Position numbers and translations under genes: made by a program
The notes under the pieces: model-generated
What the model saw: the letters and a program-made list of their open reading frames with translations, nothing else
What the model was told of the DNA's origin: nothing
Databases searched by the model: none
Shown: one piece after another, positions 47,744-63,921 of the stretch
How the letters are laid out: each line of letters starts with the position of its first letter
Numbering within the stretch: position 1 is the first letter of the stretch
Assembly: GCA_030427295.1 (NCBI GenBank)
Contig: JAUHWS010000001.1
Coordinates: forward strand, 14,079-78,078
Reading direction: 5' to 3'
DNA: 64,000 nucleotides
Source of the DNA: a bacterium
GTDB taxonomy: Bacteria > Patescibacteriota > Gracilibacteria > UM-FILTER-43-11

Positions 47744-47838
47744 TTTTTAGAGACCTTTTTTTCATTTATAGGCGTACTGCTTTAGACTTGCTTTAGTAAA
47801 ATAATTGTGGTACTTTGAGGCAAGATTAACATTTCATT

Positions 47839-48867
47839 ATGTCCAATAAGATCAGCCTAAAAAAATGTGTGAGTCTTTTTTTGGCGACCATGGCATTGGT
47901 GGTTTATCTGCCTACCTTTGCCCAAGGTCAAGACGAAGCAAAAAAGGGATTTTTGGATGTCGCCAGGACGCACGAATATTATGTGCCCATCACCTATTTG
48001 GCGAGCCAAGAAGTGATCAAGGGGTATGATGATGGCAATTTCAAATCTGACAAATTTGTCAATAAGGCTGAGGCCCTAAAAATCATCATTGAAGGCTCAG
48101 ACATTCCAACCGATGTTGTCTTTAGCCCCCTTTTTCCGGATGTCACTCAAGCTGATTGGTTTTGGAGTTACGTGATGAAGGCTCATGGACTGGGCATCGT
48201 CAACGGGAATGACGAAGATGGAACGTTCACTGGTTACGAAGTCGTCAATTTGGCGGAGTTCCTAAAGATGCTCCTCTTAGCCAACGAGATTGATGTCACG
48301 ATTTTTGAAGGCAAGCAAATTGTTCCGAATGTCGATCCCGCCGTGTGGTTTTCGAATTACGCCAGCTACGCCGCTCAAACTGGGATCATCAGTCTGAATG
48401 AAAATGGAGAAATCGACCCCTCTGCCACCCTAACTCGTGGAGAAGTGGTCAATCTGATGTACCTCCTCATTATTGTCATGAATGGCTCAGACACCGATTT
48501 TCTGACCGAACAAATGGAGCAACAAGTTGGACAAATTGAGATCTACATTGCCGACAATCGCTTGGATTTAGCCAAAACCGCCTCCAAACTGGCCGATGAC
48601 ATCGGGCAGCAAATCATCAAAAATGACGGAGAAGATCTCACGGTTGTGGCAGCCGCCAAGGTGGCCCGTGCCTATGATTTATTGGTGGATGCTTACATTG
48701 CAGGCACCGAAGGTAACAATGAAAAGGCCACTGATCTGGCCAATCAAGTCATCCAAAAGGCCAATGAAGCTCAAGAGACCGACGGAGCCCAAGAAAGCAT
48801 CGCCATCCACCTAAAAGAAATCGCCCAGGACATTCTAGAAGAGGTCGAAGCCGATACTACTCAGTAA
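47839..48867 (+). CDS. Secreted protein with three S-layer-homology (SLH) domains and a C-terminal helical region
   Basis: Signal peptide, then three SLH-like repeats: FLDVARTHEYYVPITYLASQEVIKGYDDGNFKSDKFVNKAEALKII; FPDVTQADWFWSYVMKAHGLGIVNG..; VDPAVWFSNYASYAAQTGII..LTRGEVVNLM. Confidence 0.75.
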   Translation: MSNKISLKKCVSLFLATMALVVYLPTFAQGQDEAKKGFLDVARTHEYYVPITYLASQEVIKGYDDGNFKSDKFVNKAEALKIIIEGSDIPTDVVFSPLFPDVTQADWFWSYVMKAHGLGIVNGNDEDGTFTGYEVVNLAEFLKMLLLANEIDVTIFEGKQIVPNVDPAVWFSNYASYAAQTGIISLNENGEIDPSATLTRGEVVNLMYLLIIVMNGSDTDFLTEQMEQQVGQIEIYIADNRLDLAKTASKLADDIGQQIIKNDGEDLTVVAAAKVARAYDLLVDAYIAGTEGNNEKATDLANQVIQKANEAQETDGAQESIAIHLKEIAQDILEEVEADTTQ

Positions 48868-48900
48868 AACCAACTAAAAACCAGCTAAAAACCAGACAAA
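48868..48900 (+). repeat. 3 x 11-nt array (aaccaactaaa aaccagctaaa aaccagacaaa)
   Basis: Starts at the nt after the SLH-protein TAA. Confidence 0.8.
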
Positions 48901-48958
48901 TTTTTTAAAAATTGATCATGTTTTTTTGTTACTCTAAAAACCAATAACAACCAATCTT

Positions 48959-49369
48959 ATGGCGTTAGAAGGAGAAAGAGGTGATGATATCAGCCTTCAT
49001 GGTCTTAATAAAAGTCAGCTTCTCACGGATTTGGGAGAATATGAGCGAGTTTCAAGATTATTAGAGCAACAAGATGAGGTCGGTCCAGAATTGGATCAAC
49101 TGATCCTCCGAATGGCAAAAATCAGAGCACGTATCAATGCAGTTATTCTTACATGGTGGAGCGGTGATGACCCAAGTGGACAACCAAGGCATAAACGCTT
49201 AGGACTCCGGGCTGAACACATGGGTCATATTTTATTAGGGGTAGCATTCCATTATCCTCCAGAGCTCATTACTACAATGCGCAACTACGTTAATCGATCT
49301 TTGGCTGAAGACAGTGGCTCGCGATTGCCTGCCGCCGTAGCGCGACAAGAAATTAGCGCAGCCACCTAG
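48959..49369 (+). CDS. Hypothetical protein (ORFan)
   Basis: 136-aa ORF with no recognisable motif. Confidence 0.45.
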   Translation: MALEGERGDDISLHGLNKSQLLTDLGEYERVSRLLEQQDEVGPELDQLILRMAKIRARINAVILTWWSGDDPSGQPRHKRLGLRAEHMGHILLGVAFHYPPELITTMRNYVNRSLAEDSGSRLPAAVARQEISAAT

Positions 49370-49400
49370 TTAAGATAATTTTTTATTTTAATATTACAAC

Positions 49401-49757
49401 ATGACCAATCCCGACACCCGTGACCCCACTTTAGAGGATCTTGTCGAAGAAGTGGCAGGAACAATAATTGGCCCTAATATCAACATAAAACCGCAAGGGT
49501 TAAGGGTAAGAGCAGAAGCACTTGAAAATGACAGCTATTTGAGAGAGAAAGTTTTAGCTGGCGCACGCAGAGCAATTATGGATGTCGACAGAAAGAGTGA
49601 TTGGTTTCCTAGACTGATGGAGGGGATAGCGCAAGGCACCGACGCAGAGAGGTTAAGGCTAGCGGCCTTTTACCGAGCTCTCGCAGAAAAACTGACAAAA
49701 ATAAGTTCCCAAGCTGGTTCTGTTGACCAGTCAATTTCTGCTGCTGCATCAGCTTAA
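49401..49757 (+). CDS. Hypothetical protein (ORFan)
   Basis: 118-aa ORF with no recognisable motif. Confidence 0.45.
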   Translation: MTNPDTRDPTLEDLVEEVAGTIIGPNINIKPQGLRVRAEALENDSYLREKVLAGARRAIMDVDRKSDWFPRLMEGIAQGTDAERLRLAAFYRALAEKLTKISSQAGSVDQSISAAASA

Positions 49758-49810
49758 TCTCTCAACAGGAGTGCACGTAAGTAGGCTTCGGCATTGAATT
49801 TTTTGGCAAA

Positions 49811-50009
49811 CCCTGAAGGCGAGATTGGCTAATCTCGCCTTCATTGAAAAATAAGAAAACCATTTGTCATCCTTGGAACCCTAAGGGCCCCTTAGGGGCT
49901 TGATCCAAGAGTTGTCTGTATCTGGAACCTCTGAATTCAAAAAGACTCCCAAGTTCACCTTTTTGGTAAACCACTCGCTAAGCTCGTGGACCATAAAGGC
50001 TCGGGAGTG
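49811..50009 (+). repeat. About 200-bp structured repeat R, copy 2
   Basis: Near-identical to 1144-1343 and likewise followed directly by a GTATATAC module. Confidence 0.85.
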
Positions 50010-50038
50010 ACATTAAGGTGTGGGGTAGGTATATACTT

Positions 50039-50270
50039 TGTGTGAGGGTTAGTATATACTTTATTCTTAGTTACGAATTACGAGTGACGAATTACGAGTT
50101 GATTTTTTGAGCGTTTAGCGGTCAGCGTATAGCGTTTAGCTCTATTCTAAGCTCTATTTCAGCTAATCGCTAGCCACTCACCACTGACCACTTGCCGAAA
50201 AAGGAAGCGGGACGATTCCCAGCATTTCGAAGAAGGTAGGTATATAGTTGGGAAGAAGGTGAGTATATAC
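50039..50270 (+). repeat. GTATATAC double-box module M5 (interior type 2)
   Basis: Boxes at 50039-46, 50062-69, 50240-47 (GTATATAG) and 50263-70. The interior is homologous to M3. Confidence 0.85.
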
Positions 50271-50282
50271 TTCTTTTCCAGC

Positions 50283-50310
50283 TTGTCTTTTTCGCTCCAA
50301 TCGGTATACT
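50283..50310 (+). promoter_or_regulatory. Candidate promoter for fusA (TTGTCT-16-TATACT)
   Basis: TTGTCT at 50283-88, a 16-nt spacer, TATACT at 50305-10, about 105 nt upstream of the fusA ATG. Confidence 0.4.
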
Positions 50311-50414
50311 ATCTTCGCCTTTTTATTGAAGTGACAACGAGTGGAAAGCAATTCCAGCTGCCCAGGGTCACTCACTATAAACAGTAAGTAATCAATAATA
50401 ATTAATAATTCAAT

Positions 50415-52502
50415 ATGTCAGACTACAAGGAAGCACTCAAGAAGGTCCGAAACTTTGGGATCATTGCCCATATCGATGCAGGGAAGACCACCTGTACCGA
50501 ACGTATTTTGTACTACACCGGTAAATCTTACAAAATCGGGGAAGTGCACGAAGGAGAAGCCACCATGGACTGGATGGAACAAGAGCAAGAACGCGGGATC
50601 ACCATCACTGCTGCCGCCACCACTTGTTTCTGGAAAGATCATCACTACAACATTATCGATACTCCAGGTCACGTGGACTTCACCGCTGAAGTAGAACGTT
50701 CCATGCGTGTGCTCGATGGGGGGGTAGTGGTTTTTGATGGGGTGGCTGGGGTAGAACCTCAGTCTGAAACCGTATGGCGCCAAGCTGACAAATACCATGT
50801 ACCTCGCATGTGTTTTATCAACAAGCTCGACCGTACTGGAGCCAGTTTTGAGCGTTCGTTCCAAAGTATCTTGGATCGCTTGACCAAAAATGCCTCACCC
50901 ATTCAATTGCCGATTGGAATGGAGTCAGACTTCAAAGGGCTGGTTGACTTGGTCGAAATGAAAGCCACCATCTACACCAACGACTTGGGAACCGACATGG
51001 AAGAAACCGACATTCCCGAAGACATGAAGGCCGATGTAGAAAAATGGCGCGCTCAGATGCTCGAAAAAGTCGCCGAAGGGGACGAGCAATTCATGGAAAA
51101 GTATTTGGGAGGTGAAGAATTCACCACCGAAGAACTCAAAGCCGCCATTCGCCGTGCTGTGATTGCCAACAATTTTGTCCCGGTCCTCACCGGGACAGCC
51201 CTCAAAAACAAGGGGGTACAACTGCTTTTGGATGCCGTAAACGACTACCTACCTTCTCCACTCGACATTCCTGCCATCAAAGGACACATGGCAGATGATC
51301 CAGAAAAAACCGTGGAACGCCACACTGATCCAAATGAACCTCTTGGAGCCCTCGTCTTCAAAATTGCTACGGACCCTTTTGTAGGACGCCTCTGTTTCGT
51401 TCGTGTCTATTCAGGAGTCCTCAAATCTGGATCTTATGTGTACAACTCCTCTCAAGATGCCAAAGAACGAATTGGACGCTTGGTGGAAATGCACGCCAAC
51501 GATCGAAAAGAAATTCAAGAAATTTCAGCGGGACACATTGGGGCCGTCATTGGTCTCAAATCAGTGCGAACCGGATCCACTCTCGTGGGAGATGGTCAAC
51601 CAAAAGTGATTCTCGAATCCATCGAGTTCCCCGAACCCGTGATCTCGATTGCCATCGAACCTAAAACCAAAGCCGACCAAGAAAAGATGGGGCTAGCGCT
51701 TCAAAAATTGGCCGAAGAAGATCCAACCTTCCGTGTACGCTCGGATGAAGAAACCAATCAAACCATCATCTCAGGAATGGGTGAGCTTCACCTCGAAGTC
51801 CTCGTAGACCGCATGAAACGCGAATTTAAAGTGGAAGCAAACATTGGTAAGCCTCAAGTGGCCTATCGTGAAACCATCCAAAAAGAAGTGGAAGAAGAAG
51901 AGAAATACTCCAAGCAAACCGGTGGACGCGGTCAATACGGTCACGTGCTCATCCGTGTCATGCCAAACGAAGCCGGAAAAGGATACGAGTTCATTGACTC
52001 GATCGTGGGAGGGCGTATTCCTAAAGAATACATCCCTGGGGTGCAAAAAGGTCTCGACGAAGCCCTCACGCGTGGGGTGATTGCTGGCTACCCAGTCGTC
52101 GATGTCAAAGTAGAGCTCTACGACGGGTCTTACCATGACGTCGACTCTTCTGAGTTAGCCTTTAAGATGGCTTCTAGCATTGCCTTCAAGAACGCCTGTA
52201 AAAAAGCCAGTCCAGTACTTCTAGAGCCCACCATGCACGTGGAAGTCGTGACTCCAGAAGATTACATGGGGGATGTGATGGGGGACATCAACTCTCGTCG
52301 GGGGCAAATCGATTCGATGGGGGATCGTGGACAAGCCAAAACCATCGAAGCCAAAGTCCCACTCTCCGAAATGTTCGGTTATGTTGGTGACCTCCGCTCG
52401 ATGACCCAAGGAAGGGCTTCATACACCATGGAATTCTCTCACTACGCCAAAGTGCCTAACAACGTGGCTGAGAAGATCCGTGAAGAACGAGGGATGGCGT
52501 AA
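50415..52502 (+). CDS. fusA: Elongation factor G
   Basis: [27 protein letters not shown], and domain IV/V blocks. Confidence 0.97.
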
Positions 52503-52545
52503 GTCTAATTCATTCCAATACGTTCCAATTCATTACAATTTCCAA

Positions 52546-52582
52546 ACGAAGGCGAGGATATATATCCTCGCCTTCGTTTTTT
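52546..52582 (+). terminator. Intrinsic terminator after fusA
   Basis: acgaaggcgagga-tatata-tcctcgccttcgt followed by tttttt. The stem sequence gaaggcgagg is shared with the first hairpin of repeat R. Confidence 0.85.
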
Positions 52583-52708
52583 GGAATATAAAATATGTAG
52601 GTCTTCACACACGAGCTTTCAAAATCTCAATTTTTCCTCTTAATAAAAGCCAAAAATCACATTAAAGAATGACGTAATTAATTACATAATTTTGTATTTT
52701 CATCGACA

Positions 52709-53422
52709 TCATTTATTACTTTGCTTCTGTCTTCTGATCTCCGCATTCACTTGCTCAAGAGTATCAAAAAAGGCTTTACGAGACCCAGACGCTCTATCTA
52801 ACATTGACATGTAAGTAAGGACCTCTGGATCATTTAGAGGTCCCCTTAAGGCATCTCTCCACAGAGTTTCAGTTTTTGTATCAATGCTTCCACTCGACAA
52901 ACCCTCATTTAAACGGTTAAGTATAAACATAGCTGCCATTATTTTACCAGATGACTCACCATGAAGTCGCAGTCTGTCTTTGATATGCAGCCGTCTTGCA
53001 TATTGAGTGAATATAGACTGAATTGTTCCCACCTGTTCTTTATGGGGCAGACTTGCTACGTAATCTATGGCAGACATGACAAAGTTCTCGCCCTCACTTG
53101 CATCCGAAGCCAAAATTTCATCCACTAATGGCTCAGTTTCGTGCTGAAGTCTATCGCCCAAAGCGTTAATCCATCGATTTCGAATGTCATCAGGCAATTG
53201 CCTAATATAACCCATTATTTGATGAACAAATTTGCGTTGAACGTGCTCAGGTGTAATCCAATCGTGATGATGTGAAGATGCGTTCCTCATTCCTCTATCA
53301 AAGGCTGCTTGCATCGCATCAGCATCTCGAGCTGCATCCATCTCGTATAAAAATTGTTCAAAGTAATCGCGCTTGGGTTCAGGTGCGGGAATCCGATAGG
53401 TGTCTTTTGATCTTTCATTCAT
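52709..53422 (-). CDS. Hypothetical protein (ORFan)
   Basis: 237-aa ORF that looks helical, with no signal peptide and no recognisable motif. Confidence 0.5.
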   Translation of the reverse strand: MNERSKDTYRIPAPEPKRDYFEQFLYEMDAARDADAMQAAFDRGMRNASSHHHDWITPEHVQRKFVHQIMGYIRQLPDDIRNRWINALGDRLQHETEPLVDEILASDASEGENFVMSAIDYVASLPHKEQVGTIQSIFTQYARRLHIKDRLRLHGESSGKIMAAMFILNRLNEGLSSGSIDTKTETLWRDALRGPLNDPEVLTYMSMLDRASGSRKAFFDTLEQVNAEIRRQKQSNK

Positions 53423-53529
53423 CCCTTAATTATAACATTTTCTTAGTTAAAACACAAAAAATAACCCTTAATTCCCATTTGAAACGCCTTTGTCTTTCTG
53501 CTACACTCCAAACAGAAAAAAACAAAAAA

Positions 53530-54018
53530 ATGAAAAGCGTAGTAAGCACATCACTTTCTCGTAAACTCAAATCCGGCGTCCTGTGGGGGCTGGGATTTTT
53601 TGCGGCTTTTGGGTTGGCATTTTATGCCTACGCCATTGGATTTCCTGACACCCAACCGGGTCCCGCCTCTGGCGTCGTGGGGATGTTTGTAGGAGCCACG
53701 CCCCAGGTTTATACTGGAAACATCAGCAATTACGACAAGGCCAATGGAAATTGCATCGACGCCTACGAAGACAGCCACATTTGCACGACCACCGAAATAA
53801 TCAATACTTACAATCACAATTCAGCTACCCTTCTGGGTCAAACCGATAGTTTTTGGGTCAACGGTGGCAGCCCTGCAAATCTAGAAGACTTCAGCAGTGA
53901 TTGTTTAGGATGGAGCACGGATCTTAGTGTTGCTTTCGGATATGTATGGGATACCGGTGATCAGCGGGCCTACCTCACCTCCTGCGACCAACAGCGCGCT
54001 TTTGCTTGTTGCAAGTAG
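53530..54018 (+). CDS. Membrane-anchored/secreted Cys-rich protein
   Basis: ATG 53530 (MKSVVSTS..) precedes a TM/signal helix. The C-terminal domain has 6 Cys (..NGNCIDAYEDSHICTT..SSDCLGWST..YLTSCDQQRAFACCK). A C-type-lectin/endostatin-like fold is only a guess. Confidence 0.55.
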   Translation: MKSVVSTSLSRKLKSGVLWGLGFFAAFGLAFYAYAIGFPDTQPGPASGVVGMFVGATPQVYTGNISNYDKANGNCIDAYEDSHICTTTEIINTYNHNSATLLGQTDSFWVNGGSPANLEDFSSDCLGWSTDLSVAFGYVWDTGDQRAYLTSCDQQRAFACCK

Positions 54019-54072
54019 GTCCGAATGGGTTGCGAATTGGCCGCGAATAGTTCACGGATAGATTACGAATTG
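54019..54072 (+). repeat. 11-nt periodic array, about 5 units, followed by three TGGACCNNNTGG 12-mers
   Basis: gtccgaatgg gttgcgaattg gccgcgaatag ttcacggatag attacgaattg. Starts at the nt after the TAG at 54016-18. Confidence 0.85.
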
Positions 54073-54184
54073 TGGGACGGGTGGTGGACCGAGTTGTGGA
54101 CCAAATGGTTGTCTTAACTGAATAGAAACCACAACCCGGCCAACAATGCGGCCCACGGATTGACTTGGATAAAACAAAATAAAT

Positions 54185-55945
54185 ATGACGCTCAAAAAAT
54201 TTCTCCCTATCGCTACCTTTTTCATGGCTTTGCTTGCGTTTCCCACCCTCACGCAGGCGGGCTTGAGTGATCGTTGTTTTCCCTCCATTCAATGTGATGA
54301 AAGCAGTGACTACTACGCGGGCAGCTGTCAGAAAAAAATCGATACGATCAACGATTGTCCTGTGCCTCCTTTTGGGCAATTCTCTGCCTTTAGTTGTGAT
54401 TACGGATGTTATTTTCGGACGCGCCCCGAATTTCAAGAATGCGCAGGGGGTTTCATGGTCAATGGTACCTGCATGACCTCCCTCGAAATCGTCAACGACG
54501 AAAATCAAAGTAAGATTTGGGATGGGGTCGAACTCGAATCCATCGGAGCCGGTGGTGAAGGGTTGTGGGAAACCGACGGAGTCCACGTGTATCGCAGCTC
54601 CGGAAATGTCGGGATTGGTGTCGAAAATCCCGAAGACTACCCGCTGGATGTAGCAGGCCCTATCAATGTAAATCATGACGTTGAGGGGGCGGCGATTTAT
54701 GCCAACCAGCGTCAAATGCTTTGGTATAATAAGGAATTTGGACTTGCGGGGTGGGGCTTTGACGCCGATGTCAATCTCTTTCCAAAGCGCGTGGGAATTG
54801 GAGCAATGCCTCCAGAAGAAACCAATCTGTATGTCGAAAAAGATGAGGAAGTCAACGCGTTAGGAGGCAATTATACTGGTTATTTCTATAACAAAAATAG
54901 TGGGACCACAGCTACGACTGGCATCTTCACACGCGGAGAGGCAGCCAACGCTTCAACGTATGGGCTCACTAGCTACGCCTGGAGCACCGGATCCAATGAT
55001 GCACACGGGATTTATAGCTATGCCTTAGTACAAGACAACAACAATGCAGACATTGCTTACGGACTGTACTCCATATCAATGAACAATTCCAATAACTGTG
55101 ACAATGAAGGGTGTGCCCACAGCTACGGAGTGTATTCCAAGGCTAATGGACCACTTTCAACAGGGGTGTATGGGGAAGCGCGTCAAACCGCAGGGCATTT
55201 TGTAGGTGCTTCAAACGGAAATAGCAATACCGTTGGATTAAAAGTAGAGAGTGAAGCATCTGGTTCGACCGGAGCCACCTTTAACTGTGACGGCCCTTGT
55301 ACCTCAGCCATTTTTTATGATGGGGATGATGTGGCTTACAACGAATACAAGTCTGGCATGGTGATCATTGGCAGTCCGACATCAAACCATCTCAGTTTCG
55401 ACAACAATGAAATCATGGCTAAACAATTGGGGAGTTTTTCCACCCTCCACCTCAATGCCGATGGAGGGAGTGTGATGCTCACCAAGGGCAATCCAGCTTA
55501 CAAGCTCCAATTGGCGAATGACAGTAATAATTTAAAAGGACGAGGGTTGGCATTCTCGTGGGATACCTTTTCTGACAGTCGGGTCAAGATGAATCAAAGA
55601 GATCTAAAATATGGATTAGATACTCTTATGAAATTACGACCCAAATCTTACGATCATTACAGTGGTACCGTCCAAAACGGCCAAGTCATGCTAGGAGAGG
55701 ATTATGAACCCACCATCGGATTCATTGCTCAAGAGGTTTACGACGTTATTCCTGAGGCTGTCAGAAAGCCAGCGGATGAGTCCAATGAACTCTGGACCAT
55801 GGACAGCGACAAATTGGTCCCGGTGCTGGTCAATGCCATCCAAGAACAACAAACCACCATCGATCAGTTGACTTCTGCCGTCTGCGATCTCAATCCCAAG
55901 GCTGACATCTGCAGCGAATCCAATCAAAAAGCACCCTCAATTTAG
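54185..55945 (+). CDS. Secreted tail-fibre-like protein with C-terminal peptidase S74 intramolecular-chaperone domain
   Basis: Signal peptide; Cys-rich N-domain; central repeats of the xYG(L/V/I)YS type. The C-terminus reads FSDSRVKMNQRDLKYGLDTLMKLRPKSYDH..PTIGFIAQEVYDVIPEAV...DKLVPVLVNAIQEQQ, the endosialidase/tail-fibre chaperone pattern. Confidence 0.8.
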   Translation: MTLKKFLPIATFFMALLAFPTLTQAGLSDRCFPSIQCDESSDYYAGSCQKKIDTINDCPVPPFGQFSAFSCDYGCYFRTRPEFQECAGGFMVNGTCMTSLEIVNDENQSKIWDGVELESIGAGGEGLWETDGVHVYRSSGNVGIGVENPEDYPLDVAGPINVNHDVEGAAIYANQRQMLWYNKEFGLAGWGFDADVNLFPKRVGIGAMPPEETNLYVEKDEEVNALGGNYTGYFYNKNSGTTATTGIFTRGEAANASTYGLTSYAWSTGSNDAHGIYSYALVQDNNNADIAYGLYSISMNNSNNCDNEGCAHSYGVYSKANGPLSTGVYGEARQTAGHFVGASNGNSNTVGLKVESEASGSTGATFNCDGPCTSAIFYDGDDVAYNEYKSGMVIIGSPTSNHLSFDNNEIMAKQLGSFSTLHLNADGGSVMLTKGNPAYKLQLANDSNNLKGRGLAFSWDTFSDSRVKMNQRDLKYGLDTLMKLRPKSYDHYSGTVQNGQVMLGEDYEPTIGFIAQEVYDVIPEAVRKPADESNELWTMDSDKLVPVLVNAIQEQQTTIDQLTSAVCDLNPKADICSESNQKAPSI

Positions 55946-56031: not shown

Positions 56032-56469
56032 ATGAAAAAAATAGCCAAAAAAATCAGTGCCGTGCTCCTTGCCACCTTCATCCTCTCCGCTTGTGCCAAT
56101 CAGGATGAAGCGCCAAATATAGAATCAGAGGTCACGACCGAGCCTGATCAAAGTACGACAGATAACTCAAATGCCGAAACTGAAGCCGTTCAAAACACTG
56201 GTACACCAGCCCTTCCCACCACTCCCGACCCCACAGAAGTCCTGGTTCAAGACCTGATGAATGAAACCCAGCCCACCGAAACGGGCACCCTCGATGACCT
56301 CCCTCAAGATCTCCCAGAAGCCACCGACAGTCCCGAATACAGCCAAGCGACCACTCCCGAATCTCCCCAAGATTGTGAAGCCATTCAAGATGCAGAGTTG
56401 AAATCAATCTGCTATCACGCCGCAGGCTACAGCGACAATTCACCCTCTGTCGAGGAAGATGCTTTGTAA
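56032..56469 (+). CDS. Acidic Pro/Thr-rich lipoprotein
   Basis: Lipobox ..FILSAC at aa 15-20. The remainder is low-complexity and acidic. Confidence 0.65.
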   Translation: MKKIAKKISAVLLATFILSACANQDEAPNIESEVTTEPDQSTTDNSNAETEAVQNTGTPALPTTPDPTEVLVQDLMNETQPTETGTLDDLPQDLPEATDSPEYSQATTPESPQDCEAIQDAELKSICYHAAGYSDNSPSVEEDAL

Positions 56470-56470
56470 A

Positions 56471-56554
56471 ATGTCTGATGTCTAATGGGCTAATGTCTAA
56501 TGGGGACAATCATTTGGAAAATACAAAAAGCATAAGACATTAGACATCAGACAT
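56471..56554. repeat. Perfect 17-bp inverted repeat (atgtctgatgtctaatg / cattagacatcagacat) with a 50-nt loop
   Basis: Left arm 56471-56487, right arm 56538-56554. Built from agacatc/agacatt heptamer words. It starts 1 nt after the lipoprotein stop and is followed by an A-run, not a T-run. Confidence 0.85.
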
Positions 56555-56566
56555 CAAAAAAACCCT

Positions 56567-56595
56567 TTGACAGGCGAGGGGGCATTTGCTAAAAT
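56567..56595 (+). promoter_or_regulatory. Strong sigma-70-like promoter for tuf (TTGACA-17-TAAAAT)
   Basis: TTGACA at 56567-72, a 17-nt spacer, TAAAAT at 56590-95, about 100 nt upstream of the tuf ATG. Confidence 0.65.
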
Positions 56596-56695: not shown

Positions 56696-57883
56696 ATGGC
56701 TGAAGGAACATTTGATCGCAGCAAGCCACACGTGAATGTTGGGACCATTGGTCACGTCGACCATGGTAAAACAACACTCTCTGCTGCACTTTGTACAGTT
56801 GCTGCTGCACAAGGACATGGTAAGGCAGTAAGCTTCCAGGACATTGATAATGCTCCTGAAGAAAAGGCTCGTGGTATTACCATTGCCACCTCTCACCAAG
56901 AGTACGAAACAAACAAGCGTCACTACGCTCACGTGGATTGTCCTGGGCATGCTGACTACGTTAAGAACATGATTACGGGTGCCGCTCAAATGGATGGTGC
57001 CATCTTGGTGGTTTCTGCTGCTGATGGACCAATGCCACAAACTCGAGAACACATCCTATTGGCTCGCCAAGTAGAAGTACCTCACATTGTGGTCTTCTTG
57101 AACAAATGCGACATGGTAGACGATCCAGAACTTCTCGACTTGGTTGAAATGGAGATCCGTGAACTTCTCAACAAATACGAATTCCCTGGAGACGACACGC
57201 CAATCATCCGTGGTTCTGCGCTTAAAGCGCTTGAAAACCCATCTGGAGATGATGCTAAGCCAGTGGTTGAACTCCTCAACAAGTTGGATGAATACATTCC
57301 AGATCCAAAACGTGATATCGATAAAGACATGTTGATGCCCGTTGAAGATATCTTCTCTATCAAAGGTCGTGGTACCGTTGCCACGGGTCGTATCGAACAA
57401 GGGGTGGTTAACGTGAATGACGAAGTTGAAATCGTCGGTCTACGTGACACCAAGAAAGTGGTTGTGACGGGAGTAGAAATGTTCCGAAAACTGCTTGATC
57501 GTGGTCAAGCTGGAGATAACGTTGGCTTGCTCCTTCGTGGGGTAGAGCGTGACGATATCGAACGTGGACAAGTGATCGCTAAACCAGGAACCATCACACC
57601 TCACAGTGAATTCGAAGCTGAAATCTACGTTTTGAGTAAAGAAGAAGGAGGGCGTCACACGCCATTCTTCAAAGGTTACAAACCTCAGTTCTACATCCGA
57701 ACGACTGACGTAACCGGTGAAGTTCATCTTCCAGAAGGAACCGAAATGGTGATGCCTGGAGATAACATCAAACTCCGTGTGACCCTTGGTAAAAACATCG
57801 CCCTAGAAGACGGAACCCGTTTCGCGATCCGCGAAGGAGGTCGAACCGTTGGAGCGGGTGTGGTCACCAAGATCATCAAATAG
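56696..57883 (+). CDS. tuf: Elongation factor Tu
   Basis: [22 protein letters not shown], and full-length similarity to EF-Tu. Confidence 0.98.
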
Positions 57884-57891
57884 ACCTTTTG

Positions 57892-57935
57892 TCCCGATAG
57901 GCTTCCGAGCTTATCGGGATTATAAGTTTTATTTG
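57892..57935 (+). terminator. Hairpin plus T-rich tract after tuf (terminator/attenuator)
   Basis: tcccgatag-gcttccgagc-ttatcggga followed by ttataagttttattt. Confidence 0.55.
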
Positions 57936-58036
57936 ACTGGAGCAATTCCCTTTGTGGAAACTCCTACCACATTTAAGCTTAGTAAGCTCCATAAGCTCTG
58001 TAAGCTAAAATGTACAATTCGTAACCTCTCAAACCC

Positions 58037-58369
58037 ATGGCTGCTAAAAAAGATTCTGGCAATAAACAACGCATTCGCATTACCCTAAAAGCCTTCGATC
58101 ATACCATCATCGATAAGGCTGTTGAAACCATTATCAGCACAGCAGAACGCACGGGGGCTATTGTGGCTGGGCCAATTCCGCTTCCTACCAAGATTAAAAA
58201 ATTCACGGTTCTCAAATCAACTTTTGTCTCTAAAGACTCTCGTGAACAATTCGAAATGCGCATCCACAAACGTTTGATTGACCTGCGCGAAACCACCTCT
58301 TCAACCATCGACTCACTCACCAACCTCTCGCTTCCTGCCGGAGTGGACATTGAGATTAAAATGCTTTAA
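58037..58369 (+). CDS. rpsJ: 30S ribosomal protein S10
   Basis: [11 protein letters not shown]......I...A...GA...GPIPLPT......VL.S....[15 protein letters not shown]. Confidence 0.96.
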
Positions 58370-58402
58370 TAGCGATTAACGATTAGCGAGTAACGAATAA
58401 CA
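58370..58402 (-). repeat. Heptamer word array (tagcgat taacgat tagcgag taacgaa taac)
   Basis: Starts at the nt after the rpsJ TAA. Confidence 0.75.
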
Positions 58403-58472
58403 TAAAAGCAGTTGTCCAACTTATAAAGTACCTCCTTTGAGTGGTGCTTTTTAGTTTTTAATCCTAAATATA

Positions 58473-58832
58473 ATGAAAACCTTTAAAGATGTGCTTGTTT
58501 GGAAAGAGTCATATAAATTCACATTGCTGATTTATAAACTGACAAATAACTTTCCCACATCCGAGGAATTCGGGCTAAAATCTCAAATGAGACGAGCCGC
58601 TGTATCTATTATTTCAAACTTCGCTGAAGGGTTCAAGAAGGCTAGTTTTAAAGAAAAAAATCATTTTTATAAAATCTCTGAAGGATCCTTAGAAGAAATC
58701 AAATGTCAAACGATGCTCTCCAAGGATTTGTCCTATTTGAGTGAGCAGGAGTACGAACAAATCGCATTGTTAGAAAATACCATCAGAAGACTGCTTCATG
58801 GTTGGATAAAATCCCAAAAATCTCACTACTAG
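58473..58832 (+). CDS. Four-helix-bundle protein (23S rRNA intervening-sequence protein family)
   Basis: FKDVLVWKESYKFTLLIYKLTNNFP..E.FGLKSQMRRAAVSIISNFAEGF.....KEK.HFY.IS.GSL.E, the TIGR02436-type pattern. Confidence 0.85.
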   Translation: MKTFKDVLVWKESYKFTLLIYKLTNNFPTSEEFGLKSQMRRAAVSIISNFAEGFKKASFKEKNHFYKISEGSLEEIKCQTMLSKDLSYLSEQEYEQIALLENTIRRLLHGWIKSQKSHY

Positions 58833-58863
58833 CTAATCGATAATCGTTACTCGTTAATCGTTA
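58833..58863 (+). repeat. Heptamer word array (ctaatcg ataatcg ttactcg ttaatcg tta)
   Basis: Starts at the nt after the TAG at 58830-32. Confidence 0.75.
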
Positions 58864-58901
58864 TAAGGATTTGCTATAATTTCAGTAAGCGCTTTAAAGA
58901 A

Positions 58902-59921
58902 ATGACATCAAAAAAAACCATCATCATTGGCGCAGGGCCTTCAGGGTTGGCGACGGCCTACTATCTCAAACGTGCAGGAGTGGATTTTGTGATGTTCGAA
59001 AAAGGGGATCGGCCGGGATTTTCCTATGCGAGTATGCACGAGAGCCTCAGGCTCCTCACGCCGGCCTGCTACTCCAACTTGCCAGGATTCAAACTCTCTC
59101 CCAAAAAACTTCCCTACTACACCCGTCCTCAGCTGATCGATTACTATGAGGATTACGCCGAACACTTTGAACTCCCCATTCAATTTGGTCAGGAGGTTGA
59201 ATCGGTCACAACTCACTCCGGTGGGTTTGAGGTGAAGACCAAAACTGACATCTATCAAGCCAAGTCCCTGGTTTGTGCGACGGGGCAATTTACTCACCCA
59301 TTTATCCCGCCTCTGAAGGGCCTAGCATCCACTGCCATCACGGTGATGCATTCGTCTGCCTATCAGTCGCCCCAAGCGCTCAAATCAACTCTAAACGGCA
59401 AGCAACGGGTGCTAGTGGTTGGAGGAGGAAACACGGGTACCGAAATCGCTTGTGAACTGGCCGAGGCAGGATTCAAGGTGGGTCTCTCGACCAAGCGCCC
59501 TCTCCACGTGCTCCCGCACCGTATTGTAGGGCTGGATGTTCATTTTATCGCCCGCCCTTTTGAGCACCTCACTCGCCTTGTCACCCGCATCACGGGTAAG
59601 CCTTTTGAGGTCAAAAAGACGCCGGTTTTAGGCCGACAGATCTTGCAGAAGATCAAGTCGGGTCAAATCCACGCGTATACTCAATTGCTAGGATTCGACC
59701 ACGATCAAGTCCAATTCAAGTCCGAATCCGTTCCTTTCGATGCTGTCATTTTGGCGACGGGTTATCGTTACGAAACGCCCTATCTCAAATTCTCCAGCGC
59801 CCCTCCCGGCCTCTTCTATGTCGGCAAGCCCGGCCAATCCGGCCTCGACTCGGCCTTCCTTCGCGGAATCAACTTGGATGCCAAGCGAGCCGCGAAGCAA
59901 GTGTTGCGGTATTTGAAGTGA
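58902..59921 (+). CDS. NAD(P)/FAD-dependent oxidoreductase (flavin-monooxygenase-like)
   Basis: Two Rossmann GxGxxG motifs, IIIGAGPSGLATAYYL and VLVVGGGNTGTEIACEL, plus an ATGY motif. Confidence 0.8.
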   Translation: MTSKKTIIIGAGPSGLATAYYLKRAGVDFVMFEKGDRPGFSYASMHESLRLLTPACYSNLPGFKLSPKKLPYYTRPQLIDYYEDYAEHFELPIQFGQEVESVTTHSGGFEVKTKTDIYQAKSLVCATGQFTHPFIPPLKGLASTAITVMHSSAYQSPQALKSTLNGKQRVLVVGGGNTGTEIACELAEAGFKVGLSTKRPLHVLPHRIVGLDVHFIARPFEHLTRLVTRITGKPFEVKKTPVLGRQILQKIKSGQIHAYTQLLGFDHDQVQFKSESVPFDAVILATGYRYETPYLKFSSAPPGLFYVGKPGQSGLDSAFLRGINLDAKRAAKQVLRYLK

Positions 59922-59922
59922 A

Positions 59923-60164
59923 GTATATACTCACCTTCTCCTCATCTATATACCTACCCTCTATGAAATGCTGAAGTTCATTTCGATACCTTTTTCAACA
60001 AGCGAATAGCGAGTAGCGAGTAGCGATTAGCTAAAATACAGCTTTCAGAAGCCCCCTCTAACTCCCCCGAAGGGGGAGGGTAAATAATGCTTCCTTGCAC
60101 CTCGCACTTAGCCCGCCGCACTTGTGACGAAAAGTATATACTTATCATCTTCCTAACTATATAC
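59923..60164 (-). repeat. GTATATAC double-box module M6 (interior partly type 2)
   Basis: Boxes at 59923-30, 59946-53 (CTATATAC), 60134-41 and 60157-64 (CTATATAC). The first box starts 1 nt after the oxidoreductase TGA (gTGAaGTATATAC). The interior contains agcgaat agcgagt agcgagt agcgatt agc and a ctcccccgaagggggag hairpin. Confidence 0.85.
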
Positions 60165-60352
60165 TCACCCTCTGAAAAAAGCTGGGGGCTCAGAGCTTGT
60201 TGCTGGGAGTAAAATTCGGTTAGTATAGCTCTTCATTCGTCTTAAATAAGAGGTAATTTAAGTTATTCTAAATACCGACTAGTCTACCAGCTAACAGCTA
60301 ATAGCTACCATCTCGAATAAAGTATATACCCACCCTACCTTCAAGTATATAC
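60134..60352 (-). repeat. GTATATAC double-box module M7 (interior type 3), sharing its left box pair with M6
   Basis: Boxes at 60134-41, 60157-64, 60322-29 and 60345-52. The interior is homologous to 36931-37149. Confidence 0.85.
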
Positions 60353-60426
60353 CTAAGTGTACCGTTATCACTCTCCTGCCTGAGCAAGACAATCATCTGA
60401 ATTTTACAATGTCGGAGACAGAATGC

Positions 60427-61083
60427 CTATTCAGCGAATTCCAGAAAGGGATTGTTGTCCTCGTGATCTGGATCTGCTGGTCTTTTAAGGTCATCATCCA
60501 TCCAGCCCCGAGTTAATTGTTCAGCTTCAACAACTTTATCCCTTTTAATGATAAAACTAGTACTTGCCTCGCCATTTAGTTTGGATTTTGCCTTCCGCAG
60601 TTGGTTTTCCTCACGGGTCAAATTCCCTTCGTTTAACCCATCAAAAAATGAAGCTAGTCCAGCCTTTCGATTCAAAGTCATGACTTGATTGCCAGCTTCA
60701 TCCAAAGTAACTGATTGGATGATCACTCTAACATAGGGGGTGCCCCCGACCATATCAACTCGCTCCACAAGCGCAAGATTTTCTGAAGAAGTTCCATCTT
60801 CATTGTGTTCGTAACGAACCATTGTGCCAGGAAGGTATTTATCTCTAGTGTCTAAATATTCCAATAAATCACCCCCCATATCTCCATCCCTAAATTGAAT
60901 CACACAATCTGCAAAAGCAGCTCGCTGCTCTTCAATTAATTGCGCTTCACAAGATCTTTCAGCTGCAGCTTGCCGTTCAGCGTCAATTCTTCTTACCATA
61001 TCACCCACTGTGCTGACTAAGCTCAGCCCTCCTGCTTGAGACATTTCAACATCTCTACGTTCGAATGTTCTTCCATCAGGCAT
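60427..61083 (-). CDS. Hypothetical protein (ORFan; shares a beta-rich segment with the 61145-61846 product)
   Basis: 218-aa ORF. The segment GTMVRYEHNEDGTSSENLALVERVDMVGGTPYVRVIIQSV aligns by eye with GSEVLHARLEDGSADPDRVALVDDVETIEGLRLVRCLVERV in the next gene. Confidence 0.5.
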   Translation of the reverse strand: MPDGRTFERRDVEMSQAGGLSLVSTVGDMVRRIDAERQAAAERSCEAQLIEEQRAAFADCVIQFRDGDMGGDLLEYLDTRDKYLPGTMVRYEHNEDGTSSENLALVERVDMVGGTPYVRVIIQSVTLDEAGNQVMTLNRKAGLASFFDGLNEGNLTREENQLRKAKSKLNGEASTSFIIKRDKVVEAEQLTRGWMDDDLKRPADPDHEDNNPFLEFAE

Positions 61084-61144
61084 ATCATCGTGAGTTATGA
61101 GCTAAGAGTTTATTTTTACACACCAACTGACCTTAAGACAAGTT

Positions 61145-61846
61145 TTATTGAGGGTTTCTTCCACGTACAGCCCCAACAAATTCATTGATAAATCGTTGAG
61201 TTGTCCACCCAGGGATCTCCAATGATTGGGCAACTCTCTTATCACCATTCTTAGCTAATCGGGCCTTGGCTTCTGCAAGCCTCTCTAAATTGACTGCTAA
61301 ATCATCTGGGTTCAATTCGTCTAAATCCACAGGACGACCATAAAGGACTTCAATTATGGTGGTTCTCTGGCCATCTTTACCTTGAACCACCCGTTCGACA
61401 AGGCATCGGACGAGACGAAGGCCTTCAATGGTTTCCACATCATCAACCAGGGCCACTCTGTCAGGGTCAGCGGAACCATCCTCCAAGCGGGCATGTAAGA
61501 CTTCAGAGCCTCTTGCGTAGCGCTTTTCTGCTCTTTTTTCTGCTTCTGTCCTTTGGCGATCATTCTCATCTAATTGAGCCAGAGTTTGGTCTGCTAAGGC
61601 CTGATATTCCTCGGCAGCTGCCTCGTCCATTCTGGGGCCACCTAAAGACTGACCTTTTCCGTCCATCAAATCAGCAAATTTACCTCTTTTAGAAGTAACT
61701 GCAGCATGAGCAGTATCTTGCCCATCTTTTTCAGCTAAAAACCGTGAACCACTTTCCGAAGCCAGACGGAGCTCTCTCTGTCTCTGTCTATCAGCAGCCG
61801 CTGGGTCGATAAGGTCTTCATAGGTTTCTAGTTTTCTGGCACCCAT
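61145..61846 (-). CDS. Hypothetical protein (ORFan, putative paralog of the 60427-61083 product)
   Basis: 233-aa ORF, rich in charged residues, with no signal peptide. Confidence 0.5.
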   Translation of the reverse strand: MGARKLETYEDLIDPAAADRQRQRELRLASESGSRFLAEKDGQDTAHAAVTSKRGKFADLMDGKGQSLGGPRMDEAAAEEYQALADQTLAQLDENDRQRTEAEKRAEKRYARGSEVLHARLEDGSADPDRVALVDDVETIEGLRLVRCLVERVVQGKDGQRTTIIEVLYGRPVDLDELNPDDLAVNLERLAEAKARLAKNGDKRVAQSLEIPGWTTQRFINEFVGAVRGRNPQ

Positions 61847-61918
61847 AATTTGAAAAGTTAGTAATTTAGTAAGTTTTTAAGCGCTTTAAACTGGAAAAAT
61901 GAATCTAGAATCTTAAAT

Positions 61919-62617
61919 TTAATCATTTTCAACATCAATCTGAATTTGCTCACCCATATATTCATTAACAACTTCATCAAGCTCCCTAGTATCATTGACG
62001 TTATCAACAGGACCATGTGGACATGGTATGATCGAAAGTTGATTGATTATTTCTTTTGGAAAAGAAGCTGGGACATTAGCTCCAGTCTGGGATCGGGTAT
62101 AGACAATCACTGAGCCATCTTTTTCCGGATCAAGGCCAAGGTAAATCATGCAGGCCACTACTTTTTCAGCTTGATCACAAACCAAAAGTACATCACCCGG
62201 TTCACATGTTTGAATATCAAAACCAAGGTCTGCAACATCCAATGGATATTCATCCTCTTCTTTCACGAGTGTTGCATCATTCACAATTTCATGGGCATCA
62301 CTTGGCTCTACTTGAGGAACGCCGTAACATGGCGCGGCCGCGATTGGCTCAGACCCGATAGTCCGATTTTCAGGTCTAGCAAGGACAAACCCACCACTTA
62401 CCTTTAAAGAAGTGACCCCACGGGCAGCCGCTAAAAATTTAGCTCGATTGCTGTTTGCCGCGCGCAACAAATCAGCACCAGAAACATCTCCTAAAATACT
62501 AAATCTGTTCCTAATGGCCTTAGTCACATTTGGGCCAAGTTGAACTAAGCCCTCAAAACTTTTTGGTTCTTCTATGATGTCAGTTTCAGTATATAAATCT
62601 TCTGCTGCGCCAGCCAT
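61919..62617 (-). CDS. Hypothetical protein (ORFan)
   Basis: 232-aa ORF with no recognisable motif. Confidence 0.5.
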   Translation of the reverse strand: MAGAAEDLYTETDIIEEPKSFEGLVQLGPNVTKAIRNRFSILGDVSGADLLRAANSNRAKFLAAARGVTSLKVSGGFVLARPENRTIGSEPIAAAPCYGVPQVEPSDAHEIVNDATLVKEEDEYPLDVADLGFDIQTCEPGDVLLVCDQAEKVVACMIYLGLDPEKDGSVIVYTRSQTGANVPASFPKEIINQLSIIPCPHGPVDNVNDTRELDEVVNEYMGEQIQIDVEND

Positions 62618-62726
62618 GGTAGCTAAATTTAATTTTTTAAAATTATTTAACCATTAACTTTATACAATAATATATTGAAAAATGTCAAGAGGAAGTTGGC
62701 AAGGAGAAGGTGAAAATTTCAGCGTG

Positions 62727-63560
62727 TTAGAGTTGTTTTCTACCGAAACCTGCTAAAAGTTCTTGAAAGAGACTAATAAGTCTTTTGCTCAGTCTAGATA
62801 ATTTTTCAATCACAGAGTCAAATGATAAACCTGCAGAAACTACTGGTTTATTTGACTGTCTTAAGGCAATCGCCTTATTTAACTCTTCAACATTAACAAC
62901 TCTTGTCATCCGATTTTCATCGCATTCTGCATTAACAATTTGGCTAATAGAGCCTGTTCTAGACCTAACATCGGAGATTACACCCATGCGAACCAAGTCC
63001 AGACGCCCAGTCCTTTCCATAGCCGCTAGTAGTTCTCCAATCTTAGCTCGTGATTCATCAAATCGAGTCACAGCTTCACGACCTCTCTCTTGATCGTCAG
63101 CCAGTCTTAATGCCGCCCTAGCCAACGTCACCATCCGTTCGACAGAATCATAAAGATCTGTATGCTCAAACCCTTTAGAAATAAGCTTATCAGCCAATCT
63201 AAGCCCATGTCTTTGGATTTCTTGCAATTGTTCATCCAATCGATTATCAGATTCACCATTGTACTCCAGTTCATTAGGAATGCCTGGTGCAAGTTCCGCC
63301 AATTCAATAACTGGCGTGCCATGCTGACTTATAATATCTTCAAAATGGACATCTTTGTGACCCGTTTCACCCCCAGGAGTTTCAAACTCAATTCTTATAA
63401 AAGGGTACTCCAGCTGAGTGGTGGCAACTCCCTGATACCAGTTGCCGTCGCTCCGTTTAAACTGAACTGGCCGTTTATTCACAAGAATAAAAATACGATC
63501 AAAGCGAGCGATATCAGCACCGCTTGGCTGTTCACTTGGATTAGTTCGGGGAGCATGCAT
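62727..63560 (-). CDS. Hypothetical protein (ORFan)
   Basis: 277-aa ORF with an N-terminal beta-rich segment (FILVNKRPVQFKRSDGNWYQGVATTQLEYPFIRIEFE) and a helical C-terminal half. Confidence 0.5.
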   Translation of the reverse strand: MHAPRTNPSEQPSGADIARFDRIFILVNKRPVQFKRSDGNWYQGVATTQLEYPFIRIEFETPGGETGHKDVHFEDIISQHGTPVIELAELAPGIPNELEYNGESDNRLDEQLQEIQRHGLRLADKLISKGFEHTDLYDSVERMVTLARAALRLADDQERGREAVTRFDESRAKIGELLAAMERTGRLDLVRMGVISDVRSRTGSISQIVNAECDENRMTRVVNVEELNKAIALRQSNKPVVSAGLSFDSVIEKLSRLSKRLISLFQELLAGFGRKQL

Positions 63561-63921
63561 GGCTAGAGGGTTAATGAATTAAGTAATTAACCTTATACCC
63601 CACCATACCACACCTTAAATTTTTGTAAAATTTTTTCTCCAAAAAAGTCATGCCACTCAAAGCCTTGACTTCTGCAGTCAATCTGATACACTCATTTTAA
63701 TAACTCCCTCATACATACCCACCACAGCACTTAAGCACAGACAAAAATGAACTAAACGCTAAACGCTGACCGCTACTCAAAAAATTGAGCACAGCCAAAA
63801 CCCAAAGCGGTGTGTAGAAGAGTTAATAACATATCACGAATGGATTCGCGCTCCACGTTGGTTTGTTTTTATTTAAAAATCAATGTCGGATTCGACATTC
63901 CATCCACAACCCCAAATAAAC

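Follow-up and report, generated by a model that had tools for sequence, protein, structure and literature searches.

A str gene cluster divided by envelope genes and ORFans in a Peregrinibacteria-related bacterium

The split str cluster and its transcription signals

The str cluster (rpsL-rpsG-fusA-tuf) and the beginning of the S10 operon (rpsJ-rplC-rplD) were analyzed in a 64,000-nt stretch of DNA from a bacterium of the Gracilibacteria (contig JAUHWS010000001.1, positions 14,079 to 78,078), whereby the whole stretch is referred to as the window and all coordinates are counted from its first letter. A sequence-only reading of the window had described this gene string as split by three accessory islands and had linked the islands to a family of intergenic repeats. 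Gene identities in the window and its islands were assigned by Pfam, which yielded the following backbone genes:

38480-42310: rpoB
42836-46732: rpoC, unsplit
46817-47236, + strand: rpsL (Ribosom_S12_S23)
47282-47743, + strand: rpsG (Ribosomal_S7)
50415-52502, + strand: fusA, encoding EF-G of 695 aa
56696-57883, + strand: tuf
58037-58369, + strand: rpsJ

For comparison, we read the neighborhood of fusA (or of the cysteine-rich gene described below) in 11 related loci, L082 to L092, whose EF-G is 77-94% identical to that of the window. The contig of L092 starts at the cysteine-rich gene, so that fusA is visible in 10 of the 11 relatives. A search of a protein collection returned EF-G homologues of 77-94% identity, several of which (82-88%) are named Candidatus Peregrinibacteria by their sources; by these names, the genome of the window is assigned to the same group. 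Outgroups (L001, L004, and L005) were taken from an EF-G scan with one genome per species, in which the matches listed belonged mostly to distant phyla. Homologues of the island genes in the relatives were identified by tblastn and by blastp clustering.

As in the canonical str and S10 operons, rpsL, rpsG, fusA, and tuf follow each other in the window in the usual order and orientation on one strand, with rpoB and rpoC upstream. The first unit, rpsL-rpsG (46817-47743, + strand), lies directly 3′ of rpoB-ssb-rpoC, and the order rpoB-ssb-rpoC-rpsL-rpsG is also present in L084, L089, and L004. In contrast to the canonical form, which is contiguous in many loci (e.g., L003 and L011), the genes of the window are separated by gaps of 2.7 kb (rpsG-fusA) and 4.2 kb (fusA-tuf), both filled with other genes; rpsG and tuf enclose seven other open reading frames (ORFs), including one on the opposite strand. 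Moreover, rpsJ is not followed by rplC, and fusA and tuf differ from the canonical arrangement in having putative promoters of their own, fusA in addition a predicted terminator. The split that had been read from the sequence was thereby confirmed.

An ssb gene (Pfam SSB, 4.5e-33) was observed between rpoB and rpoC, located at 42365-42790 in the window, 3285-3692 in L084, 1628-1903 in L089, and 4509-4922 in L004. As it is found down to an EF-G identity of 66%, the rpoBC operon of the Peregrinibacteria-related lineage seems to be split by this gene in a conserved manner.

Behind rpsJ, the window contains no continuation of the S10 operon, as had also been stated before. In tblastn searches with Bacillus queries, no match to rplC, rplD, rplW, rplB, rpsS, rplV, or rpsC was detected in the 64 kb, although the same queries matched other loci. 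With RplC of L092 as query, 120 Peregrinibacteria-type RplC sequences of 72-100% identity were obtained, none of which was placed on the source contig of the window. Since the RpsJ of the window is 81% identical to that of L092, its RplC would be expected within this identity range. This indirect argument suggests that rplC is absent from the source contig. The genes tuf and rpsJ, in turn, are adjacent in every relative in which both are seen. In cyanobacteria and plastids (Arthrospira, cyanelle), rps10 is likewise located behind tufA and no longer joined to the other S10 operon genes, so that in both cases rpsJ stays with tuf and apart from rplC. However, the detachment in the window is derived, as members of the clade keep rpsJ next to rplC or a few genes away from it; furthermore, rpoC is unsplit and the host belongs to the candidate phyla radiation (CPR). 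The resemblance is therefore convergent.

In order to describe the transcription of the string, promoter-like and terminator-like sequences were compared with those of the relatives:

50283-50310, + strand: putative fusA promoter, TTGTCT-16-TATACT, 9 of 12 consensus positions matched
52544-52582, + strand: predicted intrinsic terminator of fusA, a perfect palindrome of 18 + 18 nt (52544-52579) followed by a T run, by direct reading
53479-53507, + strand: putative promoter of the surface cassette between fusA and tuf, TTGAAA-17-TACACT with an upstream TG
56567-56595, + strand: putative tuf promoter, TTGACA-17-TAAAAT with an upstream TG, 11 of 12 consensus positions matched

The raw number of promoter-like consensus matches is at chance level (25 found, 25.7 expected), and the promoters that had been proposed for fusA and tuf hold by footprinting in up to 11 relatives. 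The fusA motif TTG(T/C)CT-16/17-TATA(C/A)T is shared by the window and most of the 10 relatives in which the region upstream of fusA is seen, in a looser form in L087, L088, and L090. The tuf motif TTGACA-17-TA(A/G)AAT with its upstream TG is kept in the window, L082, L092, L083, L085, L086, L087, and L090, 60-130 nt upstream of tuf; only its -10 part is visible in L084. The cassette motif TTGAA(A/C)-17-TACACT with TG is kept in the window, L082, and L092, and its -10 element TGCTACACT is also found in L085. As for the terminator that had been assigned to fusA, its stem GAAGGCGAG/CTCGCCTTC is present 3′ of fusA in L082 as well. A further hairpin with a 13-bp stem is located between tuf and rpsJ (57891-57920). 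The conserved promoters of fusA, the cassette, and tuf together with the fusA terminator suggest that the cluster is transcribed as a set of separate units. A strong predicted terminator behind fusA and conserved putative promoters in front of fusA, the cassette, and tuf would argue against co-transcription from a promoter upstream of rpsL.

Gene content of the three junctions

Island 1, at the junction of rpsG and fusA, contains the following features:

47839-48867, + strand: secreted protein of 342 aa with three S-layer homology (SLH) repeats (Pfam SLH), the conserved part of the island
48959-49369, + strand: genome-specific ORFan orf136 (136 aa), no family match, GC content at third codon positions (GC3) 0.36
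49401-49757, + strand: genome-specific ORFan orf118 (118 aa), no family match, GC3 0.39
49811-50028: second copy of repeat R (first copy 1144-1362), adjoining a module
50024-50272, + strand: GTATATAC module Me, two 38-nt direct repeats 211 bp apart from start to start, each with two palindromic boxes 23 bp apart

Over its full length, the SLH protein shares 46.5% identity with the product of the SLH gene that lies directly behind rpsG in L089 (85% EF-G identity), where the order rpoB-ssb-rpoC-rpsL-rpsG is present; the identity to its orthologue upstream of fusA in L082 is 46%. In L084, rpsG is followed by an SLH/M15 gene on the other strand. With a GC3 of 0.528, the SLH gene of the window is backbone-like. 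The end of module Me precedes the -35 hexamer of fusA by 11 bp. In 8 of the 10 relatives with visible fusA, rpsL-rpsG is missing within 10 kb upstream of fusA, and for this reason the window keeps one of the more conservative gene orders of the clade.

Island 2, at the junction of fusA and tuf, harbors a surface cassette preceded by one ORFan:

52709-53422, - strand: ORFan orf237, GC3 0.349, inside an insertion of ~0.89 kb (52583-53469) relative to L082
53530-54018, + strand: Cys162 (162 aa), N-terminal membrane anchor/helix and a six-cysteine domain, first gene of the conserved cassette
54185-55945, + strand: secreted tail-fibre-like protein with a C-terminal intramolecular chaperone domain (Pfam PF13884 Peptidase_S74, 1.8e-10)
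56032-56469, + strand: small lipoprotein with the lipobox ILSAC, by direct reading

The extent of the orf237 insertion was determined by blastn against L082, which is contiguous at this site: the alignment stops at 52582 and restarts at 53470, and the distance from the fusA terminator to the cassette promoter is 10 bp in L082. The cysteine-rich protein noticed in the sequence-only reading is present, yet its start is at 53530 and not at the ORF start 53272; the first 85 residues of the longer ORF have no counterpart in the relatives, and it overlaps the ORF on the opposite strand.

Ten of the 11 relatives carry the cassette, i.e., a cysteine-rich membrane-anchored protein and then an S74 or fibre protein, at the fusA-tuf junction. 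Homologues of Cys162 are located directly 3′ of fusA (or of fusA-IVS) in L082-L086, L088, L090, and L091, and the family also occurs in L092; their identities range from 33 to 65%, with 33-53% where fusA is visible and 65% in L092. In 9 of the 10 relatives with visible fusA, a gene of this family and then at least one large fibre-like protein, most with S74, follow fusA. The alignment of the family comprises six invariant cysteines and invariant tryptophan residues, and larger fibre-like proteins of L088 and L090 have the domain at their C-terminus. In a structure search with an AlphaFold2 (AF2) model of Cys162, all 50 best matches listed from the PDB were C-type-lectin-like domains (best E = 8e-4), so that we assign, with modest confidence, a C-type-lectin-like fold.

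A signal peptide was recognized in the S74 protein by direct reading, and its residues 254-569 match tail-fibre families of PHROG. Homologues at the same position were found in L082 (56%), L092 (53%), L084, L086, L083, L085, and L088, as well as Pfam-annotated S74 proteins at this position in L087 and L091; the orthologues in L083 and L086 also contain YadA_head adhesin repeats. The lipoprotein shows a weak similarity (25-32%) to the gene at the same position in L082 and L092. In the relatives, the fibre gene is followed on its 3′ side by a variable protein and a conserved single-pass membrane protein of ~92 aa, and the cassette is followed by tuf-rpsJ in eight of them, L092 included. The fusA-tuf interval covers 3.7-8.3 kb in relatives in which both ends are seen.

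The ~92-aa membrane protein, which has two conserved cysteines, is encoded in the fusA-tuf interval of nine relatives, usually just before tuf (L082 9392-9694, L083 16209-16496, L084 18177-18458, L085-L088, L090, and L091), with two gene copies in L088, and L092 has a gene for 97 aa at the corresponding place. The gene was not found in the window; here, the tuf promoter region comes directly after the lipoprotein gene.

Island 3, which follows rpsJ, is composed of:

58473-58832, + strand: four-helix-bundle protein of the intervening sequence (IVS) family (Pfam 23S_rRNA_IVP; TIGR02436)
58902-59921, + strand: flavoprotein similar to flavin-containing monooxygenases (FMO), by Pfam
59921-60355, - strand: modules Mf and Mg, three 36-nt box repeats and two interiors, starting 1 nt past the FMO stop codon
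60427-63560, - strand: four tandem ORFans (218, 233, 232, and 277 aa), no family match, GC3 0.30-0.36

The IVS protein is 64% identical to the product of an IVS gene located between rpsJ and rplC in L085, and its gene is flanked in the window by inverted heptamer arrays (58369-58399 and 58834-58864; inverted repeats I9 and I12). The FMO is 56% and 52% identical to the product of the gene directly behind rpsJ in L082 and L092, respectively. The region behind rpsJ differs among the relatives. In L083, rplC follows directly, and one inserted gene is found between rpsJ and rplC in L085 (IVS) as well as in L086 and L087 (unrelated genes). L092 has four genes, coding for an FMO, FolB, a nucleotidyltransferase, and an SLH protein, before rplC. 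In L082 an FMO gene is followed by an SLH gene at the contig end, and in L084 rpsJ is followed by sugar-modifying genes. Among the outgroups, L004 (66% EF-G identity) has the full order rpoB-ssb-rpoC-rpsL-rpsG-fusA-tuf-rpsJ-rplC in which three junctions contain small inserts (0.8-1.1 kb), and L005 and L001 present further variants of gene order.

The co-occurrence of an IVS/bAvd-type protein and a C-type-lectin-like protein raised the idea of a diversity-generating retroelement, which was rejected: neither a reverse transcriptase domain nor a long direct repeat over the 3′ end of Cys162 was detected. The IVS protein scored 39 bits against the Avd equivalog model (cut-off 80) and 109 bits against TIGR02436 (cut-off 24).

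Composition, ORFans, and intergenic repeats

The island genes shared with relatives (SLH, Cys162, S74, lipoprotein, IVS, and FMO) have a GC content of 0.472 and a GC3 of 0.506, compared to 0.467 and 0.465 for the translation/transcription core and 0.452 and 0.478 for the other 32 genes of the window. A contrast between shared island genes and backbone could not be detected (p = 0.16 for GC, p = 0.45 for GC3). The seven ORFans, by contrast, have a GC3 of 0.340 ± 0.029 (p = 1e-4), whereby they stand out in GC3 only and not in GC, and their proteins are Arg-rich and Lys-poor. No match to the ORFans was obtained in Pfam, PHROGs, PADLOC, or NCBIfam, and no homologue in the 11 related loci. Viral relatives of the ORFans on the opposite strand (orf237 and the 60427-63560 block) were not found either, and among 1.84 billion representative proteins orf233 had no homologue besides itself. 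The remote paralogues orf218 and orf233 are the sole case of ORFan paralogy in the window. We also considered that the ORFans are antisense artefacts and rejected this, as their GC content decreases from the first to the second and third codon position (GC1 > GC2 > GC3), which a frame antisense to a host gene would not be expected to show. This pattern, the tight tandem spacing, and the orf218/orf233 paralogy indicate that the ORFans are real genes.

Each of the three islands carries genome-specific ORFans beside a core that is shared with relatives. Since the shared core has backbone composition and the low-GC3 ORFans have no relatives, the islands are composite, consisting of an old, vertically inherited core and young genome-specific ORFans. 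Only the seven ORFans look like recent arrivals. The synteny and codon-usage comparisons that had been proposed for detecting recent insertion thus gave a divided answer: the ORFans are genome-specific and low in GC3, and the island cores are common to relatives at the same junctions and backbone-like. The same division emerged when the usual marks of a mobile genomic island were considered. No integrase or transposase domain was detected in the window, the sole tRNA gene is located at 27482, and direct repeats were not found at the borders; absence from the same site in relatives was observed for the seven ORFans only and not for the SLH, Cys162, S74, lipoprotein, IVS, and FMO genes.

Besides the ORFans, the window contains a family of repeats around the sequence GTATATAC, which occurs in 22 copies where 0.15 would be expected. 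A module consists of two direct repeats of 36-38 nt, which each contain two 8-bp palindromic boxes 23 bp apart. The direct repeats of a pair are 188, 211, or 233 bp apart, i.e., in steps of about two helical turns, and enclose one of three interchangeable interior types. Seven modules and one mini-array of three tandem boxes at 11-bp spacing, all intergenic, are spread over the whole window:

1363-1626: module
11579-11608: mini-array
14407-14668: module
31103-31343: module
36931-37149: module
50024-50272: module Me
59921-60355: modules Mf and Mg (second start 60134)

Several modules start 0-1 nt from a stop codon. No module was found in the 11 related loci, and the A-box and B-box patterns had no exact match in the JGI metagenome contigs, nor the A-box pattern in IMG/VR. 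Like repetitive extragenic palindromic (REP) sequences, bacterial interspersed mosaic elements (BIME), or miniature inverted-repeat transposable elements (MITE), the modules are multi-copy, strictly intergenic, mosaic, abutting stop codons, and specific to one genome. Unlike these, they end in direct repeats and have no terminal inverted repeats (the 8-bp palindrome is the only inverted symmetry), and neither a target-site duplication in the flanks nor a transposase in the window was detected, including transposases of the REP-associated tyrosine transposase (RAYT)/Y1 type. A small atypical gene beside the triple box (11662-12111) gave no Pfam match. The modules may be mobile repeats, protein-binding arrays, or RNA elements. 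Near fusA in two relatives, faint Pfam matches to Y1_Tnp (IS200/IS605 or RAYT type) were noticed in homologous genes (L088 9337-9918 and L091 17296-17943).

Repeat R has a length of ~215 bp plus an adjoining box, and its copies (1144-1400 and 49811-50067) are 89.9% identical over 258 bp. It has an RNA folding z-score of -4.08, and its hairpin shares the stem of the fusA terminator, which is also present at 52548. Repeat R and the modules had no Rfam match, even at E <= 1, and repeat R was not found in the relatives.

In addition, short tandem heptamer arrays were observed, 22 in the 64 kb (3.4 per 10 kb), compared to 0-1.4 per 10 kb in most relatives. They are intergenic and some of them form inverted pairs, such as a perfect 17-nt pair just upstream of the tuf promoter (56471-56487 and 56538-56554). 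Examples are located at:

47248-47273
50071-50097
56470-56556
58373-58401
58834-58863
60001-60031
63752-63775

Further observations concern regions upstream of the str cluster. The rpoB gene is not preceded by rplJ-rplL (window 35868-38270), so that the rif-region string is also broken in this genome; 5′ of rpoB there are a transglycosylase-like fragment, a DUF559 endonuclease-like gene, a module, and a 337-aa ORF with atypical codon usage and no family match. At 22852-23530, rpiB/rpe is interrupted by an overlapping nucleotidyltransferase/HepT-like toxin-antitoxin pair of the MNT-HEPN type, in place of which L082 has a HicA toxin gene near rpe. Finally, a 188-aa ORF (24228-24794; GC 0.287, GC3 0.228) with a weak, sub-threshold match to the Podovirus_Gp16 ATPase (E = 1.6e-4) is probably foreign DNA.

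Interpretation of the split and its alternatives

Taken together, we consider it likely, with a probability of roughly 75%, that the confirmed interruption represents an old, lineage-wide reorganization of the str/S10 string into separately promoted units with conserved surface genes, on top of which ORFans and repeats were added later. In this clade the string would no longer be one operon and would comprise rpsL-rpsG, fusA with its own promoter and terminator, the surface cassette, and tuf-rpsJ. The gaps between these units were probably filled long ago by envelope genes, which were then vertically inherited. An SLH-anchored protein would have taken the place behind rpsG, and a set of three kinds of genes the place between fusA and tuf, namely those for a membrane-anchored C-type-lectin-like protein, for a presumed secreted trimeric fibre-like protein with a self-cleaving S74 chaperone, and for small membrane proteins or lipoproteins. 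The 3′ junction of rpsJ is a recurrent site of insertion and rearrangement, where the cargo differs among relatives; in the window, an old IVS gene and an old FMO gene are combined there and the link to rplC was probably lost. Because the units would be transcribed separately from independent promoters, insertions between them should be harmless, which may be the reason why the junctions collect genes. The seven genome-specific ORFans with their foreign-looking codon usage would form one younger layer, and the genome-specific GTATATAC modules, presumably spread through intergenic DNA of the whole genome, a second one. Fragmentation of conserved clusters of ribosomal-protein genes is known as such, and the present case is a lineage-specific form of it. 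In a literature search we found nothing that ties Peregrinibacteria or Patescibacteria to an interruption of the str operon or to S74 proteins.

Several observations weigh against this interpretation. The arrangement is not universal in the clade, as L089, with 85% EF-G identity, has no cassette behind fusA. Gene order in the clade is fluid, which is evident from the eight relatives without rpsL-rpsG near fusA, and convergence is conceivable for some of the shared adjacencies. Cys162 identity decreases roughly along with EF-G identity, which speaks for the interpretation, but this trend is statistically borderline (rho 0.69, n = 8, p = 0.056). With regard to function, the AF2 model of Cys162 is of modest confidence (predicted local distance difference test, pLDDT, 63.6; template modelling, TM, score 0.3-0.45 to lectins), the adhesive role of island 2 is read from domain content, and the division into transcription units from motifs. 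Moreover, the closest relative with a long contig has ~94% EF-G identity (~88% for EF-Tu), which sets only a loose limit on how old the ORFan blocks and modules are.

A more far-reaching version seems unlikely to us: that the lectin-fibre cassette was fixed between fusA and tuf throughout the clade by an expression tie to the translation factors, which would couple growth state and host attachment in an episymbiont, and/or that repeat R and the GTATATAC modules constitute an undescribed mobile or regulatory element accompanying new ORFans.

The insertion model of the sequence-only reading, according to which the three islands are recently inserted accessory DNA with the modules and repeat R as vehicles or scars, draws on several true observations. 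Me and repeat R lie between orf136/orf118 and fusA, and Mf and Mg between the FMO gene and the four ORFans, so that two of the three ORFan blocks adjoin a module; these ORFans are genome-specific and low in GC3, and the modules sit precisely beside stop codons like mobile intergenic repeats. Nevertheless, the model did not survive the comparison with the relatives, which carry core genes of each of the three islands at the corresponding junctions and contain no module; in the window, these genes have backbone composition. The claim that modules mark the island borders stands for one border of six, that of island 1 and fusA, with two further modules inside island 3; it fails for the other five borders, and no module was detected at rpsG/SLH, fusA/island 2, island 2/tuf, or rpsJ/IVS. 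The clean, recent insertion of orf237 (52583-53469) has no module at either end. Modules are not enriched beside atypical low-GC3 genes (4 of 7 compared to 22 of 53 intergenic regions, Fisher p = 0.31), and ordinary housekeeping genes flank four of the seven full modules, or three of the seven intergenic regions in which modules occur. With neither transposase nor integrase found in the window, we regard this model as improbable. The island cores are common to relatives without any module; hence the splits predate the modules and cannot be due to them. For the youngest ORFan blocks, some link with the modules may still exist.

It is highly improbable that the interruptions are false and derive from a chimeric metagenome-assembled genome (MAG) joined at repeats. 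The window is indeed rich in dispersed repeats of 240-480 bp, and the joins FMO/modules/ORFans and orf118/R are seen in this assembly alone. Furthermore, the Logan contig L081 (2330 bp), which comes from an independent assembly, has its two ends at a module and at the terminator palindrome, which shows that assemblers do break at these sites. However, L081 is 100% identical to window positions 50244-52573 and thereby spans the module end, fusA, and the terminator. The junctions rpsG-SLH, fusA-terminator-Cys162-S74-lipoprotein-tuf-rpsJ, rpsJ-IVS, and rpsJ-FMO are each found in independently assembled relatives, and the module copies are 75-90% identical to one another and thus resolvable by assembly. 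A misassembly at the island borders, as had been envisaged as a possible flaw, is not supported at any junction that could be checked.

Equally remote is the explanation that island 2 represents the decaying remains of a prophage or tailocin kept by chance between fusA and tuf: although the S74 protein shares the endosialidase-type chaperone domain and the tail-fibre PHROG matches with phage tail fibres and tailspikes, and a Bro-N protein is present in the equivalent interval of L090, the interval of the window and of the 10 cassette-bearing relatives contains no other phage structural, replication, or integration gene, the cassette neighbors in those relatives are the same small membrane proteins, an IMG/VR scan gave one weak partial match only, and the S74 protein, unlike phage fibres, has a signal peptide, is chromosomally encoded, and stays at one junction across the clade down to 77% EF-G identity, with YadA_head in some orthologues and with a conserved sigma-70-type promoter and backbone-like composition of its cassette. 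We therefore infer that island 2 is a cell-surface adhesion cassette.

An old reorganization of the str/S10 string would have consequences beyond this locus. The string serves as a synteny anchor and marker set in CPR phylogenomics and binning, and its routine interruption in this lineage, where rpsJ may also be separated from rplC, affects the extraction of marker blocks and the judgement of chimerism. A striking repeat family beside accessory genes need not be their vehicle, as the relatives date the repeats after the splits. For the organism itself, the lectin-like and S74-fibre cassette with a conserved putative promoter of its own, flanked by two genes that rank among the most highly expressed, is a candidate surface apparatus of an uncultured, presumably episymbiotic lineage, in which it may serve the attachment of the cell.

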